A DNA stretch of 35,517 bases from a virus. A program made the translations under genes and the position numbers. Below the pieces are notes generated by a model. It was not told the DNA's origin and made no database searches. It saw only the letters and a list, made by a program, of their open reading frames with translations. Shown piece after piece: positions 4,848 to 35,517 of the stretch (positions within the stretch are counted from its first letter, which is position 1; each line of letters opens with the position of its first letter). The stretch lies in IMG/VR virus record IMGVR_UViG_3300028897_000210. One strand, written 5' to 3'.

Positions 4848-4989
4848 CTCTTTTCCTCCCAGTTCCTACGCCTAGCGATGAGTCGTTCCTTACTTCTGCG
4901 TCTTGCTTCACCGTGTTATGACTCCCGACCACCACCGTGCAGGCTACCAATCCCACTGCGATGATAATCAGCAGGACTGGTAGCCACAC
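4813..4989 (-). CDS. possible small membrane protein (58 aa)
   Basis: GTG 4989 lies right after the upstream stop. The product, (M)WLPVLLIIIAVGLVACTVVVGSHNTVKQDAEV..., has one clear TM helix. There is no good SD, and it overlaps the next gene start by 35 nt. Confidence 0.3.
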   Translation of the reverse strand: MWLPVLLIIIAVGLVACTVVVGSHNTVKQDAEVRNDSSLGVGTGRKRDAEPQSPEVRR

Positions 4990-4991
4990 GA

Positions 4992-5519
4992 TTACGCCAC
5001 GTCGGGGAGTTGCGTAGCAGACGAGCCAAACACCGACTGCCCGGCGACAAGTGAGACACCGGAACGATTGCTCCATCCGGTTTCCACTGCCGCGCCATTC
5101 GCCACCGCGCCGGTTGCTGTCACGGTTTTGATTGCGAAGCCGGTGAACGGCGTGGTGCCACCGTCTCGTGATCCGCCGTTACCCGCCATGCAGATCGCAA
5201 CTTGCGATACGTCATACGGGTCAGGCGTGCCATCTGCTTCGCTGCGGCCACCGCCGATATACATCAGGCTGGAATCCGCTGCTTCATCACCGCTGGGCAA
5301 AGTCTGGCCGGGGATGTAGTCGTCAGTGAACTGCGGCCCAATGTCGCCAAGAATCGGCGGTGAACCAAAGCCGATGCCGGTGCAGAGAGCACCAGTGCCC
5401 ACACCCTTGTCGAAGGGCGAAGCCTTGGGACCGGACAGCGGGTCGAAAATGACGCACGGCCCCTGTGAAGGATTCGCAGCGTTTTGAGCTGCGGTTGCAC
5501 CGGGTAGATATGCTGGCAT
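4992..5519 (-). CDS. Gly-rich protein downstream of the capsid gene (possible decoration or head-fibre protein)
   Basis: The track ORF extends to 5645. ATG 5519 is preceded by AGGAGA. The product starts MPAYLPGATAAQNAANP.... The function rests on position only. Confidence 0.5.
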   Translation of the reverse strand: MPAYLPGATAAQNAANPSQGPCVIFDPLSGPKASPFDKGVGTGALCTGIGFGSPPILGDIGPQFTDDYIPGQTLPSGDEAADSSLMYIGGGRSEADGTPDPYDVSQVAICMAGNGGSRDGGTTPFTGFAIKTVTATGAVANGAAVETGWSNRSGVSLVAGQSVFGSSATQLPDVA

Positions 5520-5581
5520 GCGAATCTCCTGTTCAAAAAGGGGTGGGGAGATGCTCCCCACCCAAACCCCCAGCGAAAGGA

Positions 5582-6544
5582 TTAGTTGTTGTCGACCAGA
5601 CGACCCTGGAACTGGCGACCCGAGCAAGTCAGGTTGCCTGCCCATCCCAGGATTTGCACCTCCGCGTCTTGGTTGATCGCATACCGCTTGTTCGGCGACA
5701 GCGGAACCATGTTGCGCGCCGCATGCGGACGCCAGTGCAGGTACTTCGTGTTGAGGAAGTACGCCGTCTTGGTCGTCGCGTAGCCGCCGAGGCCGCCATC
5801 CAGCAGAACGTCTGCCGTCATGTACTTCAGCGTTGGGAAGCCACGCGTCGCACTGTCAGCCCCGGTGAATCGTTGCTGGCTTTGCAGGCTGGCGACAAAG
5901 ATGCCCCAGAAGTCGTTGTCCATCACGATCAGGTCGGGCTTGTCCATGCCTCGGACGAGCGAAGCCCACATCGTGTTCATCGCGCCGTCAACAGTCGTGG
6001 CGTCCAGACCAGCGGCAGTGTACTTATTGGCCCAGAAGGCCCACAGCGCCGGATCGATGCCACCATAAGCGCCGACCGTAGGGGTCACGCTCACGGCCAA
6101 ATCCAGACCCGTGACTTCCTTGCCGCCCGCCCCAGTGCCGTCCGAGTAGATGCCCTCGGCAATCAGGTTCGCCATGGACGACTCGGCGACGCTGATACGG
6201 CCTTCGAGCAGGTCGATCATCTGCTCTCGGCCCGCGTTCTGGAGTTGCTCCAGCCCGCTGATGATCACCGGGCACGCCGCTTGCTTGATCTCGAACTCGG
6301 CAGCCGACAGCACGTCCTGCGCAGCAACCGGGAGGAGATCGTAGCCGCTGTACCATCCGGCGTTGCCGTTCGCGGCGAAGCTCAGCTCTTGGAGGATCTT
6401 GTAGCCGCCGCTGATGGTCTTGACGCGACCACCGGCGTCCAACCACGTCAGAAGACCGTTGTTCTTCGTGACGTTGTCGGCGATTTTCCGCGACCGGTTT
6501 TCGATCGTGGTAGCGACGATGTCGCTGATGTTGGGGAATGCCAT
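5582..6544 (-). CDS. major capsid protein
   Basis: 320-aa ORF directly after the scaffold-like gene. The N-terminus, MAFPNISDIVATTIENRSRKIADNVTKNNGLLTWL, is typical of podoviral HK97-fold coat proteins. A 111-nt structured leader precedes it. Confidence 0.75.
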   Translation of the reverse strand: MAFPNISDIVATTIENRSRKIADNVTKNNGLLTWLDAGGRVKTISGGYKILQELSFAANGNAGWYSGYDLLPVAAQDVLSAAEFEIKQAACPVIISGLEQLQNAGREQMIDLLEGRISVAESSMANLIAEGIYSDGTGAGGKEVTGLDLAVSVTPTVGAYGGIDPALWAFWANKYTAAGLDATTVDGAMNTMWASLVRGMDKPDLIVMDNDFWGIFVASLQSQQRFTGADSATRGFPTLKYMTADVLLDGGLGGYATTKTAYFLNTKYLHWRPHAARNMVPLSPNKRYAINQDAEVQILGWAGNLTCSGRQFQGRLVDNN

Positions 6545-6655
6545 TTCAAACTCCTGTCAGTTCAATGGTTGAAGGATTTTCAGCCATCGGCGCCCTTTTG
6601 GGCTGACGACGCTTTTGCGTCTCCGTCGTAGGCTTTCGCCTCGGGAAGGAGCTTA

Positions 6656-7684
6656 CTATTCGGACAATCGCGAAATGGCAGCTTCGATATCCTCGCGCAT
6701 GGAGTTTGTTGGAGGAACGGTCCCTTGAGGGTGAACCGCAGGTGCTCCTCGAACACTGGACCCCTTGCGCCGAGCTTCGTCCGCCGCCCGTTTCGCTTCA
6801 GCTGCTGAAGCCGCCTTTCTTCGGTCCTCAACAACCTTCGCAATGTCCTCGTGCATCATAATAGCACGGTTGTAGGCCGATTGCAAGTCCATTTTTTGCC
6901 CTCGTTTTGCCGCTACTTCCATGAGATCGGCCATTGTATCCCGAACATCGCTGAAAAACTCGTTTTTCGGGTCTTGAGCAAAGGCTTCAATGGAAGAATT
7001 TGCAGTTTCTTCCATAGAACTCATACTTTGCCGCTCTCGCTCAGTCAACTGCTGTGCTAATTTCTGAATTGGCGAGAGTTGCTGCTGAAGATACGCCTGA
7101 AGCTGCGGATCAACTCCGCCCGCGGGAGCTTGACCCGCCAAAAGCGAGTCCAAAGTCCGTAAATCCACGCCGAACTGCTGAATAATGTTCGCCGCAGCAT
7201 GTGCTTTCTCGATTGGAGTGCCCATCTGCAGAATTGCAGCCGTCCGCATCATATTCGACACGGTTTGGATGGGATCTCCGCTCCCTGCGGCAATCATGGA
7301 CTCGTAAGGCTTGATTGCCTGAGAAAACCGCTCCTGAAGCTGACGAGCCTCGGCTGACGTAGTCAGTCCGCGTGAAATTTCAGACTCCCTACGCACAATT
7401 TCCTCTTGAATTTCAGGCGGTAGGGACGCCCATTTCTCCCGCATCGTGGGCTTCCACGATCCAGGAGCTTTGAATTTGAGTTCTTGCTGTTGCGGCTCTG
7501 GCGGAGTCTCTTTCGCAGGCGGAGGGGTGTCCGCAGGCGGAGTTTCTTTCGCAGGCGGAGGGGTGTCCGCAGGCGGAGTCTCCGCAGGCGGAGGAGTGTC
7601 CGCAGGCGGAGTATCGTCCGCAGCAGGTTCTTGGGCCTCGTAGGCCGCGTTGATCGTGTCTCTCAAAGATAGTTCTTCACTCAC
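6656..7684 (-). CDS. scaffolding-like protein with Pro/Thr/Asp repeat N-terminus
   Basis: 342-aa ORF with a GTG start 7 nt after AAGGAGA. It lies between the portal and capsid genes. It is helical, Ala/Gln/Glu-rich and carries (TPPADTPPPAKE) repeats. Confidence 0.6.
   Translation of the reverse strand: MSEELSLRDTINAAYEAQEPAADDTPPADTPPPAETPPADTPPPAKETPPADTPPPAKETPPEPQQQELKFKAPGSWKPTMREKWASLPPEIQEEIVRRESEISRGLTTSAEARQLQERFSQAIKPYESMIAAGSGDPIQTVSNMMRTAAILQMGTPIEKAHAAANIIQQFGVDLRTLDSLLAGQAPAGGVDPQLQAYLQQQLSPIQKLAQQLTERERQSMSSMEETANSSIEAFAQDPKNEFFSDVRDTMADLMEVAAKRGQKMDLQSAYNRAIMMHEDIAKVVEDRRKAASAAEAKRAADEARRKGSSVRGAPAVHPQGTVPPTNSMREDIEAAISRLSE
7500..7622. repeat. 36-bp tandem repeat (about 3.4 units) inside the scaffold gene
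   Basis: ggcggagtctctttcgcaggcggaggggtgtccgca at 7500-7535 repeats nearly exactly at 7536-7571. Shortened units follow up to 7622. Confidence 0.85.
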
Positions 7685-8012
7685 TGGGGATTCTCCTTGG
7701 TTTATATCCCGAACGCACGCGCTCGAGTGCTTCGTTTACATCATTCTTACGAGTCGAATCGATTCCTTTTTGAATTTTCTCTCGCTCGGCTGCGGCTCGC
7801 TTCCAGGTTTCTGTGAAATCATCCGCAGTAGTGAGTCCATTGCGTCGCATGTACTCACGATGCTGAGCGCGTGAAGCGTAGCGAGGGTCGCGATCGTCCT
7901 GATAAAGACGATCGTTCCACAATAGGCTATCGTGGCTGCGGGATTCTGGAACGTGGTCATCGCTCACCTCCACGGCTTCTTCGCCAAAGTACACCCAGCG
8001 CCGCCGAGTCAT
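7677..8012 (-). CDS. hypothetical head-module protein
   Basis: The track start at 8021 is a TTG. ATG 8012 forms an ATGA overlap with the upstream stop. The product starts MTRRRWVYFGEEAVEV.... Confidence 0.6.
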   Translation of the reverse strand: MTRRRWVYFGEEAVEVSDDHVPESRSHDSLLWNDRLYQDDRDPRYASRAQHREYMRRNGLTTADDFTETWKRAAAEREKIQKGIDSTRKNDVNEALERVRSGYKPRRIPSE

Positions 8013-8293
8013 GTCCACCAACTCTTCTTACGCACGATTGGATTTCCTTGGGCATCGAAAAAGCCGAAGCCTTCAATGTCCGGCGCAGACGACGTCTTTT
8101 TCCCGAGCTCTTTCTGAAGCTCCTCGTACGCCTTCTGCCTTTCCTCCATCTTCTTGCGCAGCCCTTCCTGATAAAGCCGGTTAAGAATGCGCGGATCCGG
8201 CGCCTGAGGCGCATCCTGAGGCGGAGCCGCCGGTTCCGGCGGCTTGCGCAATCCTTTGACGAGGGCTTCAAGCTCCTGTTGCGGGTCGGCCAT
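8009..8293 (-). CDS. hypothetical head-module protein (94 aa)
   Basis: ATG 8293 is preceded by GGAGA and overlaps the portal 3' end by 26 nt. The product starts MADPQQELEALVKGL.... Confidence 0.55.
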   Translation of the reverse strand: MADPQQELEALVKGLRKPPEPAAPPQDAPQAPDPRILNRLYQEGLRKKMEERQKAYEELQKELGKKTSSAPDIEGFGFFDAQGNPIVRKKSWWT

Positions 8294-10010
8294 GAATGAT
8301 CTCCAAAGTTTTTGCTTGACGTTCCTGCGCGTGCGCAGCTTTTTCAGCCGCACTCGCCTCAGTTTCTTTGACATCCGCAATCTGCTGCGGCGTCGGTTGC
8401 GGCGGAGTCGATGCTTTCTGCTTCAGTGAGAGCTGAGTAGCCTTAACCGCCTGATCGAAGACACCCTCGATAGTCTGCGCAGAGCGGAAAGACGACATCC
8501 CCCACTGCAAGATTTGCAGCAAGAACGGAGCTGATCCCGGATCTGCTTGAACGAGTGGCCAGACTTGGCTGATGAATTGCCCCGTAGCCGTGATAAAGTC
8601 CACTCGCCCGCTGCGCTCCGCGTTGTAGTCCGGAATGGAGAGAGTATCTGTGGACACTTCGATTCGGTACCTCGCCATAAACTTGTCTTTGATCAGCTGA
8701 ATCGCCTGTGGCGCAAGCTGAGCATCTGGCGAGTACTGGATATTGCTCTGCTTCGCAATCGTTTCAGGCTTGAAGTGATTACTTATCACCTCCGCCCTGA
8801 GTCGCAGGGTATCAGTCACGAATTTAGCCACTTCCTCCTGACTGAATTGCAGCCGCGCGCTGGAGTAAGATGACTTCATCTGCTGCGCCCCTAGAGTTTC
8901 TCGGGGTGACGAAACTCCTCGCATGATATCGCTGATGCCAAGAAGCTCGTACAACTGACTCATCGCAGCCGGGAGCTGCGCTTGCAGCTTCTCAAGCGCC
9001 GCGACGACCATGTCAAGCGGGAACCAGTCCACGCTTCCCTTCGCCCCGCCGCGCTCGGAATACATCGCCCAGTTCTCAACAGGAATCATGAGGTTGTTCT
9101 TACCCCCAATCATCTGCTTCAACTCGGCGTTGGTCTTATCGTACGCGCCCACAACCCGAATTGCTTCCTCGAGCAACATGATCCGATCGGAAAGCGCAGC
9201 GACTCGGCGGTACTGCTTCTTAGCCATCTGGTAGTCGTTCTTCGGCACGAACCTGCTGGTAATCAGGTTCGCCGCCAGCGGGCGCGGGCAAGGGAAAAAG
9301 TCCTTGAAATCAAGATAGTCGTACTTCTCCTCGAGCGGAGTGTCATCACGCCCGGGATACCAGCACACCGTCTTCCGCCGCTTATTCCAGACCTCCCAAA
9401 TCTCGGCCTTTCGAGATTTAGTCTCGCTGGGCTGCAACTCAGAATCGAGTCGCCTGCCTGCGGGCGCGGGTCCCCACGTGACCTTGTCCACTGCCTCGGG
9501 TCCGAAACGCTCCTCCACTTCCCGCTTCGTCATGTAAACTCTACGGGCCACCCACCAGACCTCCGACCACGTCCGGGCAGGACTGTACCGGAAGTCCTCC
9601 CAATGGACGTAGTCCACTGGCGCCTGTTCGTCAGTAACGAAGTCGTTCCCTTGCTCGTCAGTAATGATGACCGGCTCGTACCTGACCCACACTTGCCCGA
9701 GACCCGGAATGAGTCTGTCTTCCACGGCGCAGCTGAGCGAAGTATGCGTCGCGTCGCACGTGAGCAACCGCTCCATGATGACCGCCGCTACGCGAGCAGT
9801 GTCATCCATGTAATCATCAAACTGGCGCTTGACCAACGGAGACGGCGCGTTAGCGTACAGTGCCGATCGCAGCACGTTGACGTTCGCCCAATAGACGTTG
9901 AAAACCGAGGCCCCTTCGGAACCGTGATACGTCTTCAGAGCTTCTCGCCCCTCCGCCGTAAACTTCTCGAGTTCCTTGGTACTGGCGTCAAGCTGTTCTG
10001 TCCACTTCAT
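8268..10010 (-). CDS. portal protein
   Basis: About 580 aa, immediately downstream of TerL and overlapping it. The track start at 10025 is a TTG, whereas ATG 10010 follows GAGGA. Size and position are typical of a portal. Confidence 0.8.
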   Translation of the reverse strand: MKWTEQLDASTKELEKFTAEGREALKTYHGSEGASVFNVYWANVNVLRSALYANAPSPLVKRQFDDYMDDTARVAAVIMERLLTCDATHTSLSCAVEDRLIPGLGQVWVRYEPVIITDEQGNDFVTDEQAPVDYVHWEDFRYSPARTWSEVWWVARRVYMTKREVEERFGPEAVDKVTWGPAPAGRRLDSELQPSETKSRKAEIWEVWNKRRKTVCWYPGRDDTPLEEKYDYLDFKDFFPCPRPLAANLITSRFVPKNDYQMAKKQYRRVAALSDRIMLLEEAIRVVGAYDKTNAELKQMIGGKNNLMIPVENWAMYSERGGAKGSVDWFPLDMVVAALEKLQAQLPAAMSQLYELLGISDIMRGVSSPRETLGAQQMKSSYSSARLQFSQEEVAKFVTDTLRLRAEVISNHFKPETIAKQSNIQYSPDAQLAPQAIQLIKDKFMARYRIEVSTDTLSIPDYNAERSGRVDFITATGQFISQVWPLVQADPGSAPFLLQILQWGMSSFRSAQTIEGVFDQAVKATQLSLKQKASTPPQPTPQQIADVKETEASAAEKAAHAQERQAKTLEIIHGRPATGA

Positions 10011-11322
10011 TGTAGAGGTCCTCAAGAGTGAAGTTATACGTCGGCTTTATAGGGGAGGCAGGTTCTTCCTCGGGGAGGGCTTTCAGCGCAGTGTCCGTAG
10101 ACACCGCAAAGTACCTGAACACGTCTGCGTAGTGACTCGCCCAGTCATGGACCGGGGAAGCTCGAAACACTTTCTTTTCCTCGTCGTATTCCCTACGGTA
10201 AACCTGAAGCGCATTCACTAGATCCCTAGTGTACTCTTCATTGAACCAAACCTGCGGAAACAAAAGCCTCGCCGCCGCGATGCCGTCGAGAATATCTAGT
10301 CGCGGAACTATCCGTGGGCGCACTCCGTGCGCGAGGAACTGCTCCACAATGGACCGCCCGGTTTGAAGCGACTTAGCTTTCGCATCGTGGGGCAGATACA
10401 CTTGCCCTCTCGCCACGCCGTGATGACTGCAGATCTGCGCGATGCGTTCTATGTAGAACTTGATGGGGCGCAGATTGTGCGCTTCCGCATGGAGGATGGG
10501 ATACGCCTCTACTCCGGGCTGCGCTGCCAGCAGCGCCGTATCATCCCTGTACCCTAAGTCAAACCAGAAATGCAGCGGCAAGTCCGGGTTGGGTTTGATC
10601 CTAGTGATTCTGTTCTCGTTAAGGGCGAGCGCAATGTCATGCGTATAGTACGCTCCCCTCGTCGCTGCCTCAAAGGAACACTCCATTTCCTGGGCGTATT
10701 CCTCGGGGGTCATCAACCGCTGCATCTCTTGCAGTTCCTCCTCCGGAATAATATCCGTCTCGGAAACTGGCATGCGGGAGTGGTACCACCTGTCCGGGTC
10801 TCTCGTAGCCTCGAGATACATATCCCTGAAGTGATTTGGTCCATTGGGCGTCCCAATGAAAGTCGCCCACCCGCCTCGATCCACGAGGGTGGGAAGAATC
10901 ACCTCCGTCCACGTGCTCCCGCGCATTAGCCCGTACTCGTCCAAGACAACGCCATCGAAGTAGAGGCCCCTGAATGAGTCAGGGTTGTCCGCGCCGTAGA
11001 GGGTGAGCTTCGTATTGTTCTGGATGGTGACACTAAGCTCCCCTTCGCTGACTTTCTTCTGAAACGGCGCTGTATATCGCTTGACGTAGTCCCATGCGAC
11101 TTGCTTTGCCTGATTATAGAATGGGGCGATGTACGCATATCTACCCGGCGGGGCGCTTTTTGGACCTGCGAAGTACAGCATCCTTGTGATCGTGTCGTTT
11201 ACCGTTGCTACGGTCTTTCCGCCTCTTCGGTGGACCACTAAAATCGCCCACCGCTGGTGGCGGGAGTGGAATGGGTGGAATATCTCCCGCGGCGAGTACT
11301 CGTGTCTTATTTCCCTGGGCAT
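9988..11322 (-). CDS. terL: terminase large subunit
   Basis: 444 aa. It has a Walker A-like VVHRRGGKTVA, a Walker B-like GVVLDEYG, and a C-terminal nuclease-like half (FWFDLGYRDDTA, YLPHD). Confidence 0.9.
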   Translation of the reverse strand: MPREIRHEYSPREIFHPFHSRHQRWAILVVHRRGGKTVATVNDTITRMLYFAGPKSAPPGRYAYIAPFYNQAKQVAWDYVKRYTAPFQKKVSEGELSVTIQNNTKLTLYGADNPDSFRGLYFDGVVLDEYGLMRGSTWTEVILPTLVDRGGWATFIGTPNGPNHFRDMYLEATRDPDRWYHSRMPVSETDIIPEEELQEMQRLMTPEEYAQEMECSFEAATRGAYYTHDIALALNENRITRIKPNPDLPLHFWFDLGYRDDTALLAAQPGVEAYPILHAEAHNLRPIKFYIERIAQICSHHGVARGQVYLPHDAKAKSLQTGRSIVEQFLAHGVRPRIVPRLDILDGIAAARLLFPQVWFNEEYTRDLVNALQVYRREYDEEKKVFRASPVHDWASHYADVFRYFAVSTDTALKALPEEEPASPIKPTYNFTLEDLYNEVDRTA

Positions 11323-11536
11323 ATCCGTAGTTCGGTGGGGGGAGAGATGTGACTATGATCGTGTCGGAGTCGGCCTGATTTTCTGGAACTCCGTACTTAC
11401 TCGCGAGGCGGGCGAAGTCTACTGGATACGCTCGTTTAAGTCGCGCAAAGAATGCCGCCGCGCCCAGACCGTCCTCGGTCGCCTCGCGGTACAGCAGAGC
11501 TATTTCTTCTCTTGTCCAGGGCTTGCGCGACACCAT
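11141..11536 (-). CDS. small DNA-binding protein at the terS position (Myb/SANT-like WTxEE helix)
   Basis: ATG 11536 gives MVSRKPWTREEIALLYREATEDGLGAAAFFARLKRAY.... The frame has no stop until 11141, so the last 182 nt overlap terL out of frame. The terS role rests on position only. Confidence 0.45.
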   Translation of the reverse strand: MVSRKPWTREEIALLYREATEDGLGAAAFFARLKRAYPVDFARLASKYGVPENQADSDTIIVTSLPPPNYGYAQGNKTRVLAAGDIPPIPLPPPAVGDFSGPPKRRKDRSNGKRHDHKDAVLRRSKKRPAG

Positions 11537-11572
11537 TCGTCTCAAGTCTAACCCCTGCGGGCCATGCGCACG

Positions 11573-11602
11573 TCTATACCACGGGTTGCAGTTGAATTGC
11601 AA
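11573..11602 (-). promoter_or_regulatory. candidate sigma70-type late promoter (TTGCAA-N18-TATAGA)
   Basis: The minus strand reads TTGCAAttcaactgcaacccgtggTATAGA, about 35 nt upstream of ATG 11536 and downstream of terminator 11965-11991. Confidence 0.35.
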
Positions 11603-11649
11603 GCCTCTGGCGTATTTAGTGGGGGAAAATTGCAACGGATGGGGTGGAA

Positions 11650-11743
11650 TTTGAAGAGGACCAAAACTACAACGGATGGGGGCGTACCTCGTTTGAAGAG
11701 GACCAAAACTACAACAGAGTTTGAAGAGGACCAAAACTACAAC
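11650..11743. repeat. three perfect 24-bp direct repeats TTTGAAGAGGACCAAAACTACAAC
   Basis: Copies lie at 11650-11673, 11692-11715 and 11720-11743, with spacers of 18 and 4 bp. A degenerate fourth copy sits near 11620-11640. The flanking CAACGGATGGGG and GCGTACCTC motifs are each duplicated. Confidence 0.9.
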
Positions 11744-11964
11744 GCGAGGCTGCGTACCTCCTGTGGGAATTTTTATGGTGATGGTGGGGGCTGATACTCC
11801 CCGGGGGGTCGGTTTCGTCGCGATTAGATGGCCTTATCGCCCCAGAAGCTACGCTTATCCCAGTCGGATAAAGAAACTTTATGGCTCCAGAAGAACGGCT
11901 TATGCCGGAGGGGATAAACTGGGTGGATGGTGGCATTAATCTTCCTTATGGGCATGGGCAAAAG

Positions 11965-11991
11965 AAAACCCGCGCTGTCCGCGCGGGTTTT
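11965..11991 (-). terminator. rho-independent terminator of the histone-like gene
   Basis: aaaaCCCGCGCtgtccGCGCGGGtttt is a 7-bp GC stem. On the minus strand it is followed by TTTTCTTTT, and it lies 14 nt after the stop at 12005. Confidence 0.8.
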
Positions 11992-12004
11992 CCGGGTTGC
12001 GGCG

Positions 12005-12346
12005 TTACTTCTGCGCCAAGTAACCCCGGCGCTGGAGGTAGCTTACAAAGACGTGGCCCCCGCTAACGCGCTTGCCGTGCGGGCCGTCGTCCAGCAACTT
12101 GGCCAGTTTGGCGGCGGTCGCCGGGCACGCTTTTTCCACCTGCGCCCACGCGTCTTTGTTATGCGCGGCTTTCAGCTTTACCGGGTTGCCACTGGGAGCC
12201 AGTACCGCGTCGCTGGGCGTGGCGTTACGCCGCGTCAGCTTGGCGGCCGCCACGGGCGCTTCCGGCGCAGCCTTGGCCACGGGCGCAGCCTTGGCCACGG
12301 GCGCGGCCTTGGCCGCAGTTTTTTCCTTCTTGGTTTGCTTTGCCAT
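12005..12346 (-). CDS. Lys/Ala/Pro-rich histone-H1-like DNA-binding protein
   Basis: ATG 12346 follows AAGGAG. The N-terminus is MAKQTKKEKTAAKAAPVAKAAPVAKAAPEAPVAAAK, followed by a C-terminal globular segment. The gene has its own terminator. Confidence 0.7.
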   Translation of the reverse strand: MAKQTKKEKTAAKAAPVAKAAPVAKAAPEAPVAAAKLTRRNATPSDAVLAPSGNPVKLKAAHNKDAWAQVEKACPATAAKLAKLLDDGPHGKRVSGGHVFVSYLQRRGYLAQK

Positions 12347-12476
12347 TTTACTACTCCTTACAAGGTACCCGCGTACCGCGCGGGCGACGGTTGCGGCGTA
12401 TGCCGCATTTCTGTATGTTACGCCAAGTTAGGCAGCGGCGCACGAGAAAAGTTGCACGGAAATTTTTATGGCCGCA

Positions 12477-12554
12477 TTACTTCCGGTTATAGCGGTTTCC
12501 GCCCACGCTGTCCAGCGCGATAAGCACAATTAATATCAGGATAATCCAAAGCAT
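12477..12554 (-). CDS. possible 25-aa hydrophobic peptide
   Basis: GGAGAcgacaATG precedes MLWIILILIVLIALDSVGGNRYNRK. It is very short, so support is weak. Confidence 0.2.
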   Translation of the reverse strand: MLWIILILIVLIALDSVGGNRYNRK

Positions 12555-12848
12555 TGTCGTCTCCGGTTGCGTTTCCAATACCCATTAGGCCACAGAACGG
12601 AGAAAAAGTTTCTAAGTTCTTTTTATGCCCCCATTTCTTCCGCTTATGGCCGCCGCCGTCGCCGGCGGCGCGCGGACAATACGCGTCCGATCGCGAACGT
12701 CATAGGCATATTTCGTAATTCGAGGTCGGAGAGCGAGGATCATAGGACTCGGCGAGGTCACTCTCGGAGGTAGAATTCGTTATTCGCACGGCTCGGCGAC
12801 GCCGAGCTCTCGTACTCGGACTCTGAGGTCTTAGTTCAAACGGTCGCG

Positions 12849-22181: not shown

Positions 22182-22564
22182 GACTTGAAAGAGATATAGA
22201 GCTACGAGTTGTAAATTGGATTTGGAATGTTCACAAAATCCGAACTATAAAGCTCAACATCTACGGGAACAGAGGTTATCCAGACCGCATATTTCTGATG
22301 CCCCTGCGGCCCGCGTGGATAGAATTCAAACGTCCCGGCAAGAAAGTACGCAAACTTCAAGACTACCGTATAACGGAACTCATAGAGATCGGATATGATG
22401 CAATCTCAACGGATAGCGCGACGGAAGCCATCGAGTGGCTTGGAAGAATTTATACCGCACGACTATCAGAAGCAGGCTATTCGGCTAGCGATATCGCAAG
22501 CATGCGCAGGATTTCTGTTACGTCCTGGATTAGGGAAAACAAGCATCACGCTGGCAGCGTATAG
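22166..22564 (+). CDS. VRR-NUC domain nuclease
   Basis: ATG 22166 follows GGGAGG, and the track start at 22133 is a GTG. Motifs are GYPD, IEFKRPG and KLQDYRI. The 3' 170 nt overlap the SNF2 gene out of frame. Confidence 0.7.
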   Translation: MPFGVRLERDIELRVVNWIWNVHKIRTIKLNIYGNRGYPDRIFLMPLRPAWIEFKRPGKKVRKLQDYRITELIEIGYDAISTDSATEAIEWLGRIYTARLSEAGYSASDIASMRRISVTSWIRENKHHAGSV

Positions 22565-23804
22565 AATTCTTAAGAAGCACGGATACGTCCGCGGAGTGCT
22601 GATAGTCACCCCTCTAAGACCAATGTATCACACGTGGCCCGGCGAAATTCATAAGTGGCGACAATTCAAAGGGTTGCGCCCCGGCCTATTACATGGCGCG
22701 CGTAAAATGGAGACCTTACACGGGCACAAAGGGAGCGTGTACCTGATCAACCCTGAGGGAATCGATTGGCTGACAGATCAACTGGCTAAAATGAAGCGTT
22801 GGCCATTCGATGTTCTTGTGGTTGACGAGTCCACGAAGTTTAAGGACTCCAGGACTAAACGCTTCAAGGCGCTGCGCAAGCTGATCCCGAAATTCAAGCG
22901 GCGGTATATCCTGACTGGGACTGTGGCCCCCAATGGGCTGCTGGATCTCTTTGGTCAAATCTACATTCTCGACGAGGGGCACTCGTTGGGGCGGTACATC
23001 ACGCACTATCGGAATATGTTTTTCGTCCCGGGCGGGTACGGGGGGTACTCATGGTCTCCAAGACAGGATGCCATGGAAGAAATTGTGGAGCGCATCAAGC
23101 CTCTGGTATTCGTAATGAATGAAGAGGACGTGGTCAAGCTCCCAAAGCTGATCAACAACTACATCTGGCTCGACCTGCCAGAACAGGCGCGGCGCGTGTA
23201 CCGAGATTTGGAAGAAGAATTCCTTACCATACTCGAAGACGATATTATCACGGCTCCCAGCGCGGCGGCGGCTGGAGTGAAATGCAGGCAGGTTCTGAAT
23301 GGAGCCTTATATATCAATTCCGAGCATGACTGGCGAGAGGTTCATAAGGCGAAGCTCGACGCCCTGCAAGATCTTGTAGAAGAGCTGAGTGGAGACCCGC
23401 TACTACTCCTGTACGAATTTGAGCATGATGCCGAACGGTTGGAGAAGCTTCTGGGCTGGCCGCGCGTAGGAAAAGGGTCGCCCAAGAAGGATAATCAAAT
23501 CCTCGACAACTTCAATAAGGGCATACTCCCGGGGATAATTGCTCACCCCGCGAGCGCGGGGCATGGATTAAATCTACAGGAAAAGTGCGCGAACGTCTGT
23601 TGGTTCGGATTAACATGGAACCTGGAACACTATGACCAAGCGATTCGTCGTGTTTGGCGTCAAGGTAATTCCGCTACCCGCGTTATCAATCACCATATTT
23701 GCATCCGTAATTCGTTGGATGAAACGGTGGTGCAGGCGTTAGCGCAGAAAGACCGCACGCAGCGGGCATTGACTGATTTGCTTAGGGGCTTGCCAAGAAG
23801 CTAG
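22395..23804 (+). CDS. SNF2-family helicase
   Basis: HDYQKQAI, Walker A PGLGKTS, DESTKFK and LTGTVAPNGLLDLF, followed by a helicase-C half. Confidence 0.88.
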   Translation: MMQSQRIARRKPSSGLEEFIPHDYQKQAIRLAISQACAGFLLRPGLGKTSITLAAYRILKKHGYVRGVLIVTPLRPMYHTWPGEIHKWRQFKGLRPGLLHGARKMETLHGHKGSVYLINPEGIDWLTDQLAKMKRWPFDVLVVDESTKFKDSRTKRFKALRKLIPKFKRRYILTGTVAPNGLLDLFGQIYILDEGHSLGRYITHYRNMFFVPGGYGGYSWSPRQDAMEEIVERIKPLVFVMNEEDVVKLPKLINNYIWLDLPEQARRVYRDLEEEFLTILEDDIITAPSAAAAGVKCRQVLNGALYINSEHDWREVHKAKLDALQDLVEELSGDPLLLLYEFEHDAERLEKLLGWPRVGKGSPKKDNQILDNFNKGILPGIIAHPASAGHGLNLQEKCANVCWFGLTWNLEHYDQAIRRVWRQGNSATRVINHHICIRNSLDETVVQALAQKDRTQRALTDLLRGLPRS

Positions 23805-23818
23805 ACAACCCTTACAAT
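23790..23818 (+). promoter_or_regulatory. sigma70-type promoter TTGCCA-N17-TACAAT
   Basis: TTGCCA (23790-23795), an exact 17-nt spacer, then TACAAT (23813-23818). It lies about 80 nt upstream of ATG 23897. A CTCCCT...AGGGAG hairpin (23826-23859) starts near the predicted TSS. Confidence 0.5.
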
Positions 23819-23896
23819 ACAAAAACTCCCTCCTCGCGGGCAGGCGGCGGGATAGGGAGCTACCCCAGCCTGCAAACCTTCTTTAGGAGAGTAGAA

Positions 23897-24472
23897 ATGG
23901 CAACTCGTGGAAAGAAAGCGCCGCCCCCGGCGAAAGAGGACCCCAAGGCCAAGGAAAAGGACAAGGCCAAGGACAAGGCCAAGAAGCCGGGCCGGTTCGA
24001 GTCGCGGCTCAACCCCAACCACTTCATCACGATGCTGGTGGACTACAACCCCAAGCGCGCGGGTAGTGAGAGCCACGACCGCTTCGAGAACTACCAAGAC
24101 GGAATGACGGTGGCCGAGGCTCTCAAGGCGGGCGTCACCAGCGGCGACCTGAATTGGGACATCAAGCACGGCTTCATCAAGGTGGCCGAAGAGCACGACG
24201 AAAACGCCGAGAAGAAGTCGAAGCCCGCCCCGAAGGCGAAGGCCAAGAAAGAGGCCAAGAAAGAAGAGCCGAAGCGCGGTAAGAAAGCGGCCAAAGAAGC
24301 CGAAGAGGAGGAGGACGAAGACGAAGAGGAGGACGAAGACGAAGAGGAGGACGAAGACGAAGACGAAGACGAAGAGGAGGACGAAGAGGAAGACGAAGAA
24401 GACGAAGAAGACGAAGAAGACGAAGAAGACGAAGAGCCGGTCAAGCCCACTCGCGGGCGCGGCAAGAAGTAG
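23897..24472 (+). CDS. charge-block protein: Lys-rich N-terminus, small globular domain, Lys-rich linker, 45-residue poly-Asp/Glu tract
   Basis: 191 aa with TAGGAGAG before the ATG. The sequence runs MATRGKKAPPPAKEDPKAKEKDKAKDKAKKPG...KSKPAPKAKAKKEAKKEEPKRGKKAAKEA, then 45 consecutive D/E residues, then PVKPTRGRGKK. Confidence 0.8.
   Translation: MATRGKKAPPPAKEDPKAKEKDKAKDKAKKPGRFESRLNPNHFITMLVDYNPKRAGSESHDRFENYQDGMTVAEALKAGVTSGDLNWDIKHGFIKVAEEHDENAEKKSKPAPKAKAKKEAKKEEPKRGKKAAKEAEEEEDEDEEEDEDEEEDEDEDEDEEEDEEEDEEDEEDEEDEEDEEPVKPTRGRGKK
24302..24436. repeat. GAR/GAY codon tandem repeat (encodes the acidic tract)
   Basis: Repeating gaagaggaggacgaagac and gaagaagac units, 135 nt in total. Confidence 0.9.
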
Positions 24473-24489: not shown

Positions 24490-25251
24490 ATGGAAATCTT
24501 TATACCTTCCAGCGGTCGCCCGCTCTCGCAGGTTACTTATCACGCACTACCCAAGGAACTGCGGGAGCGGGTGAAGATCGTTGTACCCCCTGACGAAGTC
24601 TGGGCGTACAGAAAATACCCCATCATCACCCATAAGCGCGTCGTGCGGGACATTTGCAAGGTGCGCCAGTGGATTCTTGAACGGGCACATAACAAGTTCA
24701 TCATGCTCGATGATGATCTTGTATTCGCCATTCGTAGAGAAGATGAGCCAACAAAGTTCCGCCCTGCTACGCACGCCGACATAGTGCACCTATTCGAGAC
24801 CGTTGAATCATTGCTTGGCGGTTACGCTCACGTCGGCATTGCCACGCGAGAAGGCGGAAACCGCAACACTGCAGACTATCTTGAAAACGGGCGCATGATC
24901 CGAGCTCTGGCGTACTGCGCGCGCGTAGTGCTGCAAGAGAAAGCTAGGTTTGACCGAGTGCGCGGACGTGAAGATTTGGACATGACCCTCCAGCTTCTAC
25001 GCCGTGGTCTGGACAATAAAATCGTGAATTGGGCTGTTACGAATCAAGGCGGCTCAAACTCAAAAGGAGGATGTGCGCAGTGGCGGACGTTCGAAGTAAT
25101 GGACGAAACCGCGAAACAACTCCATAAGCTGCATCCAGAATTTGTGCGGCTTGTCAAGAAAACAACCAAAACGGCATGGGGCGGAGGAACTCGCACCGAG
25201 GTCGTTATTTCTTGGAAAAAGGCGTTCGAAAGTGCGCAATCAACGGACTAA
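24490..25251 (+). CDS. GT-A-fold-like glycosyltransferase (DxD)
   Basis: 253 aa. It has an N-terminal beta-strand motif IFIPSSGRP, and FIMLDDDLVF about 80 residues later, which is the usual GT-A order. No search was run. Confidence 0.45.
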   Translation: MEIFIPSSGRPLSQVTYHALPKELRERVKIVVPPDEVWAYRKYPIITHKRVVRDICKVRQWILERAHNKFIMLDDDLVFAIRREDEPTKFRPATHADIVHLFETVESLLGGYAHVGIATREGGNRNTADYLENGRMIRALAYCARVVLQEKARFDRVRGREDLDMTLQLLRRGLDNKIVNWAVTNQGGSNSKGGCAQWRTFEVMDETAKQLHKLHPEFVRLVKKTTKTAWGGGTRTEVVISWKKAFESAQSTD

Positions 25252-26071
25252 AGACGTCGCCTATTGGATATACGAGCGCGAGCAAATCCGAATTAAGAAA
25301 GAAGCCGGTAAGCCTTCCCCGTGGACAAAGGATAAAATCCTCAACACTTATCGCTTTTGCAACGTCAACAGGGAAGACGATAGGGTAACTCGGTGGCTGA
25401 ATAAGCACTGGCGTCGGCCCTACCACGATCACCCCAACCTGATCCCCGCGCTGCTCTTGGCGCGCATGATCAACTGGCCTCCCACGCTGGCCGAGATTGG
25501 CTTCCCCGAAAAGTGGAATCCTGAACATATAATCCAGACCATGCACGCTCGCGCTGCTAGCGGAGAAAAGACGTGGACGAGCGCCTACGTAGTAACTACC
25601 TGTGGCAAGGCGATGGACAAGGCGGTGTACGTTGTTCAGAACGTTTGTGACAGCGTGCGGCGCGCTGGGGTAGGCTACCCTACGCCGCCCAGCCTTGAAG
25701 CGGTCTGGACAGCCCTGCGCGGGTTTGATGGGCTGGGGGCCGGGTTCCTCGCAGCGCAGGTAGTTGCTGATTTGAAGAACACATACCGCAACCCTCTGAA
25801 GAAGGCCCATGACTGGTGGACGTGGGCTGCGCCGGGGCCGGGAAGTCTCCGTGGGCTGAGCACATACTTTGGAACTAGCATAACGCGGAACAACTTTTTG
25901 GATAGCTTGCATGCCATGCAGGAAGAAGTGTACCCTATGCTGGGCGCTAGCGTACCGAGACTGTGCAGCCAGAACTGGCAGAACGTGATGTGCGAGATGT
26001 CAAAGTATTGGAAAGCCGATGAAAACAGAGGAAGACCAAAAGCGTACTATTCCCCGACAACGGAATTCTAA
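25232..26071 (+). CDS. alpha-glutamyl/putrescinyl thymine pyrophosphorylase (aGPT-Pplase)-like DNA base hypermodification protein
   Basis: The frame is open from TTG 25142. No in-frame ATG precedes the conserved region, so the probable start is GTG 25232, after GGAAAAAGG. The N-terminal stretch YEREQIRIKKEAGKPSPWTKDKILNTYRFCNVNREDDRVTRWL matches the family signature as I recall it. Confidence 0.5.
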   Translation: MRNQRTKDVAYWIYEREQIRIKKEAGKPSPWTKDKILNTYRFCNVNREDDRVTRWLNKHWRRPYHDHPNLIPALLLARMINWPPTLAEIGFPEKWNPEHIIQTMHARAASGEKTWTSAYVVTTCGKAMDKAVYVVQNVCDSVRRAGVGYPTPPSLEAVWTALRGFDGLGAGFLAAQVVADLKNTYRNPLKKAHDWWTWAAPGPGSLRGLSTYFGTSITRNNFLDSLHAMQEEVYPMLGASVPRLCSQNWQNVMCEMSKYWKADENRGRPKAYYSPTTEF

Positions 26072-26396
26072 CGGGCAATGGAAGAAAAATCCCAAAGAAG
26101 CGTGGTTTTGTCCAACCCATAAGCGATGGATGGTAGTGGTGACCGGGCACCCACTTTTTCCCGGGAAGAAATACGTCCATCGCGCAAGAAAAGTTATGGC
26201 AGAATATTTAGGGCGAGAACTTCTGCCCTCAGAGATTATCCACCACATAGATGGAGACCGCACAAACGACGACATTGAAAATTTAGAGATTACAACACGG
26301 CGCGGGCATAGGCTTGAACATCAGCAAGATTTAGAGGCCGGATGGACTGCTGAAAAATGGCGCGCGCACAGACGAAAGCGATGGAATCGTGATTAA
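26019..26396 (+). CDS. HNH endonuclease
   Basis: IIHHIDGDRTNDDIENLEITTRRGHRLEH is an HNH_3-type motif. It overlaps the upstream gene end by 53 nt. Confidence 0.75.
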   Translation: MKTEEDQKRTIPRQRNSNGQWKKNPKEAWFCPTHKRWMVVVTGHPLFPGKKYVHRARKVMAEYLGRELLPSEIIHHIDGDRTNDDIENLEITTRRGHRLEHQQDLEAGWTAEKWRAHRRKRWNRD

Positions 26397-26410: not shown

Positions 26411-27433
26411 ATGAATGTGATTAATGTAAGGAACGTGAACTCTGCATTCTCAGAGGGTATGTGGCAGTTGAAGGTAATGGGGCGCGTAGAACAAACCCGC
26501 AATGGAGAGGCACTGGCATTCCAAGTTCCAGTGACCACCGTATACCGGATGCCCGAAGAGCGAGTGCTATTTGACTGGCGGAGGGACGCCAACCCTTTCT
26601 TCCATTTGGCGGAGGCCTTGTGGATGCTGGCGGGGAGTGACCTAGTGGATTTCGTCGGCCAGTTTGCCAGCCAGATGTTCGAATACTCGGACGATGGCGA
26701 GACCATCCACGGAGCTTACGGATACCGATGGAGACATCGCTTTGGAGTTGACCAGCTTTGGAACGCCATAAAGCTGCTCAGGAATGACCGCACTACTCGG
26801 CGCTGCGTGATTGGCATCTACGATCCTCGCGTGGATGCGATGTATACTGGGAAGGATCTGCCATGTAACACGATGGTGCATTTCCGCGTGCAGCCGGGAA
26901 ACTACCTTGACATGACGGTGTCCAACAGATCTAATGACATGGTCTGGGGGGCATACGGAGCCAATGCCGTCCATTTTAGCGTGCTACAGGAATTCATAGC
27001 ACGCGCGGCGGGGCTACGGGTAGGCGCATATTGTCAGGTGAGCAACAACCTGCACCTCTACAAGCACCACTATCACTTCGCGACGTCTCCCCCGGCGTAC
27101 GAATTTGAGCTCTACAACAGACCTGAGTGTAGATTCATTCCGCTGCTGCAAGTCAGCGAAAAGCCAGAAGCATTCATCGAAGACTGCGAGCAGTTGGTCA
27201 TAGAAGGAGCCGAGTACAACCCGTTTCAGACTTACTTTTTCAAGCGCGTGGTGGAGCCCATGCTCATCGCCCACGTCGCGCATAAGGCGGGAGACGAAAA
27301 GGGTGCGCTGGATAACATCGAGCGAATGGACCAGTGTGATTGGAAGGTAGCAGCGGATAACTGGCTAAGGAGAAGATACTATGCTGAAGAAGCAGAACAC
27401 CAATGGAATCGTTGGCTCCTCAGAAGCCAATAA
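26411..27433 (+). CDS. divergent thymidylate synthase (ThyA)-family enzyme, possibly a dUMP hydroxymethylase
   Basis: 340 aa with GGAGA before the ATG. It has HGAYGYRWR, the catalytic-Cys motif DLPCNTMVHF, and NRSNDMVWGAYGANAVHFSVLQE with the Asn retained, which implies a uracil substrate. Confidence 0.75.
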   Translation: MNVINVRNVNSAFSEGMWQLKVMGRVEQTRNGEALAFQVPVTTVYRMPEERVLFDWRRDANPFFHLAEALWMLAGSDLVDFVGQFASQMFEYSDDGETIHGAYGYRWRHRFGVDQLWNAIKLLRNDRTTRRCVIGIYDPRVDAMYTGKDLPCNTMVHFRVQPGNYLDMTVSNRSNDMVWGAYGANAVHFSVLQEFIARAAGLRVGAYCQVSNNLHLYKHHYHFATSPPAYEFELYNRPECRFIPLLQVSEKPEAFIEDCEQLVIEGAEYNPFQTYFFKRVVEPMLIAHVAHKAGDEKGALDNIERMDQCDWKVAADNWLRRRYYAEEAEHQWNRWLLRSQ

Positions 27434-27677
27434 GGTTCAGGTTGGCGGCGACCACTATGCCAAGTTCGGACAATGGCAGCACTGGGATGTCGTTCACTAC
27501 TTCAACCTCGGGTACTTTGAAGGCCAGATCACAAAGTACCTCTTCCGGTGGAAAGACAAAGGCGGAGTCAAGGACCTCGAAAAGGCCCAGCATTTTCTGC
27601 AAAAACTCATTGAAATAGCCAAGGCCGAGCAGGACGAAGGAGCTGAACCGGGGCCGGGCTACGTCAAGCAAGATTAG
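27381..27677 (+). CDS. DUF3310-family protein
   Basis: AAGGAGAAG precedes the ATG. QVGGDHY...GQITKYLFRWKDKGGVKDLEKAQHFL matches the DUF3310 pattern. Confidence 0.7.
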   Translation: MLKKQNTNGIVGSSEANKVQVGGDHYAKFGQWQHWDVVHYFNLGYFEGQITKYLFRWKDKGGVKDLEKAQHFLQKLIEIAKAEQDEGAEPGPGYVKQD

Positions 27678-27859
27678 CTTGCCATCAGTTTTGACAGGCG
27701 TACCATAACCCTACTGCCTCCCGCGCGTGGGAGCGGGGCTAGCGACAGGTTGGAGTCGCGCACACAGAGGACCACTGATAAACCCTCGTGTGCATCCTTA
27801 CACCCGAGCCGGGGCGGGTTCCGACCTCCCGGCCTTCCTATGCTCGAAAGGATAATCAC

Positions 27860-35305: not shown

Positions 35306-35517
35306 CTAGCCCCACATCGGTTGATCAAGGTAAGCGAAGGGATCATCTTGGCCAGTACGCGAGTACATGGGCTTCACGCGTGTTTGGAACTGATCCCACG
35401 TCTCGTTATGCTGCGGATAGACTCCGAAGAAAGGAGCCAATCCTCCAAAAGGATTGGTTCGCATGAAATCTGCGATCTTGTCTTCGTCGCTCATCCGCTT
35501 AAAGAATAGCGACTCGC
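35306..35517 (-). CDS. C-terminal part of the junction-spanning virion gene (same gene as 1..421)
   Basis: The frame stays open to the window end. It ends ...MSDEDKIADFMRTNPFGGLAPFFGVYPQHNETWDQFQTRVKPMYSRTGQDDPFAYLDQPMWG with stop at 35306. Confidence 0.7.
   Translation of the reverse strand, partial: ESLFFKRMSDEDKIADFMRTNPFGGLAPFFGVYPQHNETWDQFQTRVKPMYSRTGQDDPFAYLDQPMWG
35374..35517. repeat. terminal direct repeat, copy B (circular-closure overlap)
   Basis: Identical to 1-144. The repeat lies inside an open reading frame that continues seamlessly into base 145 onward. Confidence 0.95.

Follow-up and report, generated by a model that had tools for sequence, protein, structure and literature searches.

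What is the function of a small viral protein in which 45 consecutive aspartate and glutamate (Asp/Glu, D/E) residues are flanked by lysine-rich blocks, and whose gene opens a set of DNA-modification genes? The question is raised by IMG/VR record IMGVR_UViG_3300028897_000210, a viral sequence of 35,517 nucleotides (nt), the whole of which is termed the window. The product of open reading frame (ORF) 23897..24472, 191 amino acids (aa) in length, is designated X. We tentatively interpret X as a small nucleic-acid-binding protein, most likely a DNA-binding one, that would act as an accessory of a replication and thymidine-hypermodification module.

An earlier note on this DNA had described X as a five-part protein with segregated charges, and that description is correct. 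The acidic run, the flanking Lys-rich blocks and the RGRGKK end are all found in the ORF, which is preceded by a Shine-Dalgarno sequence (AGGAG, 23885-23889) spaced 7 nt from the ATG. In total, X contains 39 Lys/Arg (K/R) and 68 D/E residues (net charge -29; isoelectric point 4.56), with 12 K/R in the K/P/A-rich aa 1-32 and 14 in the basic stretch of aa 97-135. A full-length structure prediction, made from an 11-sequence orthologue alignment, is ordered only at aa ~38-110 (predicted local distance difference test, pLDDT, of 84-96 for aa 41-110), and aa 1-35 and 111-191 (pLDDT 42-60) are without secondary structure. Among orthologues the composition of the N-terminal arm is kept and its sequence is not.

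The modification cassette and the domain of X

The cassette context is the strongest functional clue to X. Upstream lie genes for PolA, a PD-(D/E)XK nuclease and an SNF2 helicase. The downstream genes encode a TET-associated-type glycosyltransferase (TAGT), a homologue of the 5-hydroxymethyldeoxyuridine (5-hmdU) DNA kinase and an enzyme resembling thymidylate synthase (TS), presumed to be a dUMP hydroxymethylase (Table 1). The last two are encoded together, as in hypermodification pathways, and the same pair of enzymes defines the thymidine hypermodification pathways of M6-like phages (PMC5889632, PMC8989533). A similar cluster, likewise close to PolA and containing TS, aG/PT-PPlase1 and sometimes a glucosyltransferase, has been described in HTVC023P-type pelagiphages (PMC9599517). 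A term search of PMC8989533 yielded no mention of “glycosyltransferase”, “DNA-binding” or “acidic”.

Among viral and metagenomic loci, 44 distinct homologues of X were located directly before a TAGT or kinase gene. This order was observed in at least four unrelated kinds of genomic backbone: podovirus-like relatives with PolA, PD-(D/E)XK and SNF2 genes; the siphovirus PhiJL001, in which gp18 directly precedes the kinase homologue gp19; contigs of 69-72 kb typified by L019, with no PolA or SNF2 gene nearby; and the Pam3-like contig L121, which carries a UvrD-type helicase. A cassette gene was present within 4 kb in 28 of the 57 domain-bearing ORFs that have at least 2.5 kb of downstream sequence.

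The ordered part of X belongs to a large family of domains of ∼55 aa. An exhaustive HMMER search with aa 29-106, counted as clusters at 50% identity, returned 1,835 clusters at E<=1e-3, some of them spurious, and 118 at E<=1e-10. The window ORF matched the A1 family profile with 107.7 bits (E 6e-33). The consensus of the domain is ..ITLLV..NPKR.GS.S..RF..Y..GMTV.EAL.AGVT..DL.WD..HGFI., in which N51, K53, Y66, G79 and D88 are invariant, and in most cases the domain forms the very C-terminus of a protein of 80-330 aa. An AlphaFold2 model of the domain, built from an 89-sequence alignment (pLDDT 98.2), has the topology beta1-H1-H2-H3-beta2, and the H2-turn-H3 segment (VAEALKAGVTSGDL) bears the classic A-x-x-x-G-V-T helix-turn-helix signature, as read from the sequence. 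The best Foldseek matches in the PDB were winged-helix modules of MetAP2/Ebp1, PriA and RPC39 (TM-scores 0.5-0.64, E 0.9-7), none of them significant; in BFVD only PhiJL001 gp18 and unnamed proteins were retrieved.

Searches of annotated collections returned little. No family for X was present in Pfam, NCBIfam or PADLOC, and nothing real was obtained from PDB sequences by single-sequence or profile searches, so that an assignment of X to the HMG type or to a known chaperone or mimic family, the kinds of protein with which the earlier note had associated the charge segregation, received no support from these libraries. In PHROG the sole match was phrog_10064 (E 0.005), which spans the low-complexity tail only. 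Low-complexity candidates dominated a word-indexed homologue search with the full protein, which gave one irrelevant match; the domain alone shared no words, and the domain profile gave only seven matches, all unnamed. The plasmid collection contained no match and the genome collection a single contig of a metagenome-assembled genome. Four giant Ig-repeat proteins (P0006, P0019, P0051 and P0063) were rejected as spurious members, only the N-terminal half of the query being matched, inside ASH/DUF1573 repeats.

The inference of nucleic-acid binding is based mainly on the fusion partners of the domain, most of which have DNA, chromatin or nucleic acids as their targets. A T4 endoV-like DNA glycosylase (Pyr_excise) is fused N-terminally to the domain in L033:2424-3371, L085:4365-5312 and L107, and all three fusions occupy the same SNF2-to-TAGT slot and keep a Lys-rich linker and an acidic end (…QEETIE). 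Other partners include an SprT-like protease (L036), DUF2786 with DUF7168 (L022, L098) and PHD fingers (P0045, P0125), and 2-4 copies of the domain are found in ADP-ribosyltransferases (P0009, P0083, P0091). The domain also occurs in eukaryotic non-LTR retrotransposon ORFs, just upstream of RVT_1 (L102:419-3976, also L087, L101 and L108-L110).

Several additional features of the family were recorded. The retroelement- and PHD-type domain proteins (also P0014) came from freshwater metagenomes, and the eukaryotic retroelement contigs contained no dinoflagellate spliced-leader relics. In L036 (IMGVR_UViG_3300035182_000806), six ORFs within 4968-12722 end in the domain, including the fusion to the SprT-like metalloprotease, which suggests a common targeting module for different N-terminal effectors. 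Many two-domain relatives (P0015, L005, L021, L029) carry a second small, unannotated N-terminal motif, …LV.LYN.L..KPVKKF..R..A..R…, and PhiJL001 gp18 (L001 5764-6219) has both this motif and the domain.

From these data we infer that X binds DNA, that it cooperates with the modification enzymes and that its tail is autoinhibitory. The ∼55-aa helix-turn-helix or winged-helix-like domain would dock on DNA, and the two disordered Lys/Ala/Pro-rich arms would provide non-specific affinity, in an architecture like that of linker histones. The acidic C-terminal end may fold back on the basic arms or the domain, tuning or autoinhibiting binding in the manner of the tails of HMGB1 or of the single-stranded-DNA-binding proteins SSB, gp32 and gp2.5, and may also serve as a handle for basic partners. 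As the presumed first gene of an operon with a conserved promoter, followed by those for TAGT, the kinase, the TS-like hydroxymethylase and DUF3310, X would be made together with enzymes that act on hydroxymethyluracil (hmU) already in DNA. X probably coats, organizes or presents hmU DNA for modification or protection, and the 45-residue expansion may add a decoy activity resembling DNA mimicry.

A number of observations weigh against this interpretation. The fold comparison is non-significant (best E 0.9). The domain is not basic (8 K/R versus 9 D/E), and the conserved Asp residues in its third helix are odd for a recognition helix. About half of the domain ORFs do not lie beside cassette genes, and the synteny is inflated, since the loci were fetched with patterns from close relatives. 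The kinase homologue is present in 93 cultured phages (including M6 and PhiW-14), whereas among 50,697 phage records the domain is found only in PhiJL001; X therefore belongs to one type of cassette as an accessory and is not a universal component. Finally, nine of the syntenic homologues are essentially tail-less, which indicates that the tail is dispensable for the core role.

The domain family, the position of X at the head of a TAGT-type hypermodification cassette, and the conserved promoter with its leader pseudoknot all appear to be undescribed in the libraries and papers covered. Thymidine hypermodification pathways are actively studied as anti-restriction chemistry and as enzyme toolkits, and the published cassettes are those of cultured phages, which are without an X gene except for PhiJL001. 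A widespread, uncharacterized viral domain at the promoter-proximal position of such a cassette is a testable candidate for a DNA-handling accessory factor. Because the domain is without a solved relative and is fused to many modules, identification of its ligand would annotate thousands of proteins.

Table 1. Coordinates of gene X, its parts, its control region and the surrounding genes (window positions unless a locus is named)
Feature	Position	Strand	Details
Promoter-like element CTTGCC-N-TACAAT	23789..23818	+	-35 TTGCCA 23790-23795, -10 TACAAT 23813-23818 (N17)
5' leader, ~78 nt	23819..23896	+	pseudoknot-compatible stems, then Shine-Dalgarno context
Leader stem S1	23826-23831 (CTCCCT) with 23854-23859 (AGGGAG)	+	
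Leader stem S2	23840-23845 (GCAGGC) with 23868-23873 (GCCTGC)	+	
X coding sequence	23897..24472	+	ATG start, 191 aa; orthologues at 44 distinct syntenic loci
N-terminal Lys/Ala/Pro-rich arm, aa 1-37	23897..24007	+	predicted disordered, pLDDT 42-61, without secondary structure
Globular domain, aa 38-98, and ordered flanking motif EEHDENAEKKSKP (to aa 110)	24008..24226	+	predicted beta-H1-H2-H3-beta; helix-turn-helix signature A-x-x-x-G-V-T
Second Lys-rich basic block, aa 105-135	24209..24301	+	from composition; predicted disordered
Uninterrupted 45-residue Asp/Glu tract, aa 136-180	24302..24436	+	imperfect GAA/GAG/GAC tandem repeat
Basic C-terminal end PVKPTRGRGKK	24437..24469	+	similar ends in L017 (EEPAPKPRAAKIRAKK) and L047 (APAPKKPVGKKK)
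SNF2-family helicase	22395..23804	+	PF00176 9e-16; phrog_62 2.5e-127; syntenic in most podovirus-like relatives
TET-associated-type glycosyltransferase (TAGT)	24490..25251	+	PF20691 1.5e-16; phrog_842 7e-44; starts 17 nt past the X stop
Protein with 5-hmdU DNA kinase helical domain (HMUDK_hel; formerly aGPT-Pplase1)	25142..26071	+	PF18723 1.6e-35
HNH endonuclease ORF inside the cassette	26019..26396	+	PF13392 1.7e-9
Thymidylate-synthase-like enzyme, presumed dUMP hydroxymethylase	26411..27433	+	PF00303 6.5e-22; phrog_5131 4e-108
DUF3310 gene, last of the co-directional cassette	27381..27677	+	PF11753 3e-6; follows the TS-like gene in relatives
113-aa ORF	12005-12346	-	AAGGAG Shine-Dalgarno; hairpin and T-run after the stop; K/A/P-repeat N-terminus (AAPVAKAAPVAKAAP), small C-terminal globular part
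Pseudoknot leaders of orthologues	L002:3280-3343, L004:7924-7994, L040:294-360, L041:~2340-2404, L042:2403-2461, L053:2006-2073, L059:872-928		

The acidic tract and the charged tail

The codons of the acidic tract (GAA 20, GAC 14 and GAG 11) form an imperfect tandem repeat with periods of 6, 9 and 30, in which GAAGACGAA occurs in five and GACGAAGAA in four exact tandem copies. Its composition is far from chance, and the repeat structure, with up to five exact 9-nt copies, points to expansion driven by slippage. The long poly-Ser and poly-Phe/Val ORFs in other frames and on the opposite strand are by-products of the repeat. Several features point away from an assembly artefact: the 135 nt of the tract form an imperfect repeat that keeps the reading frame, conserved sequence flanks it, and the independent assemblies L017 (23 aa) and P0010 (∼50 aa) have acidic blocks at the same place.

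Among the 44 distinct syntenic homologues, the longest D/E run ranges from 0 to 14 residues. Together with the nine tail-less members, this means that the conserved function of the family cannot depend on a long DNA-mimicking tract. On the question of tract-length variation among relatives, which had been raised in the earlier note, it is the charged tail that is shared and not the long tract. The same note had considered that the homologues might be tail-less members of a well-characterized family; long acidic tails are indeed missing from many of them, whereas good characterization of the family is lacking. Near-identical relatives, in which polymorphism of the tract length might be visible, were not found by megablast of 9 kb against phages, by exact-protein look-up or in a metagenome scan for close relatives.

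In the orthologues the domain is followed by a short acidic motif (E-E-[YF]-D-D), a basic stretch resembling KKSKP.PKPKAEK, and an acidic end. Over 33 orthologous tails, the mean net charges of these three parts were -2.1, +5.5 and -4.5, the middle block being net positive in 31 and the end negative in 25, and the net charge of the entire tail ranged from -11 to +6. Maintenance of the acidic-basic-acidic order in tails of such divergent sequence is the signature expected of a functional charged disordered region. The arrangement in the window is approached most closely by L017, in which the 23-aa acidic block is followed by PAPKPRAAKIRAKK, and by L047, which has a similar basic end; the acidic tail of P0010 is ∼50 aa long. 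The 45-residue tract is a lineage-specific triplet-repeat expansion of the short acidic end, which usually comprises ∼5-10 residues. It represents the extreme of a variable, recurrently expanding element and not a hallmark of the family, and through the expansion an otherwise near-neutral protein has become strongly acidic (net -29). With its increase from ∼8 to 45 acidic residues, the tail offers a natural experiment on the way DNA-binding proteins are tuned, or put to a new use, by charged disordered tails.

The tract could also be the active part of X. As a flexible DNA mimic or host-takeover decoy, along the lines of the mimic or decoy role suggested in the earlier note, its disordered D/E residues would imitate the phosphate backbone and titrate host DNA-binding proteins, such as RNA polymerase, nucleoid proteins, restriction or defense nucleases and glycosylases that attack hmU-DNA, while the domain and the basic arms would localize X on DNA. 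The strongly negative net charge of X and 45 acidic residues uninterrupted by a basic one speak for this reading, and an hmU-DNA phage supplies a direct precedent, SPO1 Gp44 (PMC8208478). The exact 9-nt copies are a sign of ongoing expansion, and long acidic blocks have arisen again independently in L017 and P0010. However, most orthologues are near neutral, with 5-10 acidic residues or none at this place, so that mimicry is not the ancestral function of the family, and the adjoining basic blocks would partly neutralize the tract intramolecularly. No homology was detected to Gp44 or, in Pfam, PHROG functional families or PDB sequences, to the structured mimics Ocr, ArdA, Ugi and Arn, whose folded carboxylate scaffold differs from the acidic region of X, which is predicted to be disordered. 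Overall, this explanation is considered unlikely, though it retains some weight.

A related proposal, which we view as rather unlikely, assigns to the acidic C-terminal tip the role of a short linear motif that recruits proteins of the cassette or replisome (SNF2 helicase, PolA, TAGT and the kinase) to domain-bound DNA, as the SSB tip and the gp2.5 and gp32 tails do. The location of the X gene between replication and modification genes is consistent with a hub of this type, as are the similar tips (EE[TS][MI][DEA] or poly-E) in which many orthologues end. In the structural model, moreover, the EE(Y/F)DD..KKSKP motif is predicted to pack on the domain (pLDDT 84). The acidic block is not terminal, though, in the window, L017 and L047, where a basic end follows it, and the tail is absent from some orthologues.

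A more specific version of DNA binding, in which the ∼55-aa domain would be a dedicated reader or adaptor for hmU-type DNA, is judged improbable. X would then bind newly replicated 5-hmdU phage DNA and hand it on to the kinase and glycosyltransferase, or protect it against glycosylases and nucleases of the host, with the expandable tail as a decoy for host defense proteins. If so, one class of thymidine-hypermodification systems would have in X an unrecognized fourth component, the new leader pseudoknot described below may determine how strongly X is expressed, and eukaryotic retroelements and PHD-finger proteins would have acquired the same domain by borrowing.

Promoter, leader and neighboring genes

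The promoter-like element upstream of X overlaps the SNF2 helicase gene at its final codons. With 10 of 12 positions matched, TTGCCA-N17-TACAAT is the best sigma-70-like sequence between 15.5 and 30 kb, and the total number of such matches (6 found versus 7.5 expected from shuffles) is not above chance. At the same place, GCTTGC(A/C)-N~17-TAnnAT, a motif also expressed as CTTGC-N18-20-TAnnnT, was observed in 22 of 36 distinct orthologous upstream regions, in which the rest of the intergenic sequence has diverged, and this conservation argues that the promoter is real. Both the promoter and the long leader, as pointed out in the earlier note, are thus upheld as features by their conservation in orthologues. 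The note had also held X to be the only gene of the plus operon with such a promoter, and had taken this as a hint of high or independent expression. Neither the uniqueness nor the independence agrees with the present data: the motif CTTGC-N17-20-TAnnAT occurs three times in the window (0.62 expected), at 6858-6887 (-), 23789-23818 (+) and 27678-27706 (+), and the promoter of X heads a conserved operon of X, TAGT, the 5-hmdU DNA kinase and the TS-like enzyme. No terminator-like site was predicted on the plus strand between X and TAGT; together with the 17-nt gap, this suggests that the promoter probably drives the whole cassette. Of the two additional copies, that at 27678-27706 directly follows the DUF3310 gene and that at 6858-6887 lies upstream of the major capsid gene.

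The leader contains a conserved Shine-Dalgarno context, CTTCTTTAGGAG, at 23878-23889, which occurs exactly once in the window. A candidate H-type pseudoknot, CCCN-N2-3-stem(6-8 bp)-NGGGAT(T)-stem', can be formed by seven distinct orthologous leaders. In an alignment registered by hand, which favors the structure, all 79 of 79 cells pair and 11 of the 14 pairs change on both sides; none of 500 shuffles reached this result, and slid controls paired at 38-54%. The pseudoknot of the window itself is looser, with longer loops, and an equally good one was found in 3 of 200 shuffles (0.015). Several orthologous leaders (L006-L011, L047, L048, L051 and L066) are without it. Neither the leader nor the whole window matched an Rfam family. 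A generic scan for pseudoknots lacks specificity, giving 3-31 matches in shuffled windows, and only positionally conserved leader copies were therefore used. The covarying leader pseudoknot is a candidate for a new phage regulatory RNA. Elsewhere in the window, a consensus-like pseudoknot, ACCCG-A-GCCGGGG-CGGGTTCCGACC-TCCCGGC, is located at 27802-27833 (+), 96 nt past the 27678 promoter.

The possibility that X is an RNA-binding autoregulator, which would bind the pseudoknot of its own leader and regulate its own translation or that of the cassette in the manner of T4 gp32, appears highly unlikely. The structure covaries in seven distinct leaders, immediately after the conserved promoter, an acidic C-terminal domain is also present in T4 gp32, and RNA binding is plausible for the domain where it lies beside reverse transcriptase in eukaryotic non-LTR retrotransposon ORFs. 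On the other hand, the pseudoknot is missing from several orthologous leaders, its geometry differs in the window, a 5' structure could merely stabilize the mRNA, and nothing links the protein to the RNA.

The suggestion in the earlier note that X is a chaperone for the basic 113-aa product of ORF 12005-12346 found no supporting link, and a role in neutralizing this or a virion-internal basic protein, like that of eukaryotic acidic histone chaperones, is very improbable: the tract is of chaperone-like length and the Lys/Ala/Pro-rich N-terminus of the ORF product, together with its own Shine-Dalgarno sequence and the hairpin and T-run after its stop, speaks in favor, but the two genes are without co-variation, synteny or homology link, the long tract is missing from most X orthologues, and X has basic blocks of its own. 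No Pfam family and no match in phage records was detected for this ORF, and on comparison it proved unrelated to the X domain and not a paralogue of it.

Within the cassette, the listed TTG start of the kinase gene overlaps TAGT, and translation probably begins further downstream. In relatives such as L002, only ∼170 nt separate the kinase and TS matches, and the intervening HNH ORF of the window therefore looks like a homing-endonuclease insertion. At the level of the genome, nt 1-144 of the window are identical to 35374-35517, which indicates that the genome, of ∼35.37 kb, is complete and either circularly closed or terminally redundant. For the major capsid protein, identity reaches 68% with the counterpart in Stenotrophomonas phage BUCT555 and 60% with that in Myxococcus phage Mx8, whereas the replication and modification module resembles that of uncultured freshwater or soil podovirus-like contigs, indicating a mosaic genome.

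Comparison with known systems

The combination of a DNA-binding domain, basic arms and an acidic tail is a known kind of architecture. HMGB1 consists of one or more DNA-binding domains, a basic linker and an uninterrupted D/E tail of ∼30 residues, which folds back and autoinhibits DNA binding. X similarly has a long continuous D/E run after a Lys-rich block. It differs in its bacterial-viral setting, in a tail length that is not conserved in its family and in having no HMG box (no Pfam family at E<=0.01; predicted fold beta-H-H-H-beta). Linker histones H1/H5 and the bacterial H1-like K/A/P-repeat proteins have disordered Lys/Ala/Pro-rich arms, with a winged-helix-like domain of the H1/H5 type. 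X is alike in architecture only: in Pfam its domain did not match the Linker_histone family, the domain is of smaller size and is not basic, and an acidic block is added.

T4 gp32, T7 gp2.5 and bacterial SSB are DNA-binding proteins of replication; their acidic C-terminal tails act as competitors of DNA and as recruiters of partner proteins. X gave no match to the SSB families, and its fold is predicted to be helical with two short strands and not an oligonucleotide-binding (OB) fold. An autoregulatory pseudoknot at the 5' end of the gp32 mRNA is paralleled by the leader pseudoknot of X; autoregulation of X is purely hypothetical. SPO1 TF1, an HU-family protein that prefers hmU-DNA, is similar in concept only, as an abundant phage-encoded architectural protein for hmU-based DNA, and its HU fold is unrelated to X. 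With the cassettes of M6, ViI, PhiW-14 and PaMx11, the window shares the TS-like hydroxymethylase and the kinase, to which the window type adds TAGT and X.

In SPO1 Gp44, a 55-aa DNA-binding domain is followed by a disordered region with 57% D/E that mimics single-stranded DNA and binds the beta and beta' subunits of RNA polymerase (PMC8208478). No sequence or fold match between Gp44 and X was detected. Gp44 begins with its domain, which is of Xis-like type, and has an acidic region that is central and not uninterrupted; lysine-rich arms are absent, and its gene is an early host-shutoff gene and not the head of a modification operon. The likeness lies in the small folded domain of ∼55 aa, in the long disordered D/E region without basic residues, and in the hmU-DNA phage in which Gp44 is found; by analogy, X would have a Gp44-type architecture, with a predicted DNA-binding domain and a disordered acidic region free of basic residues.

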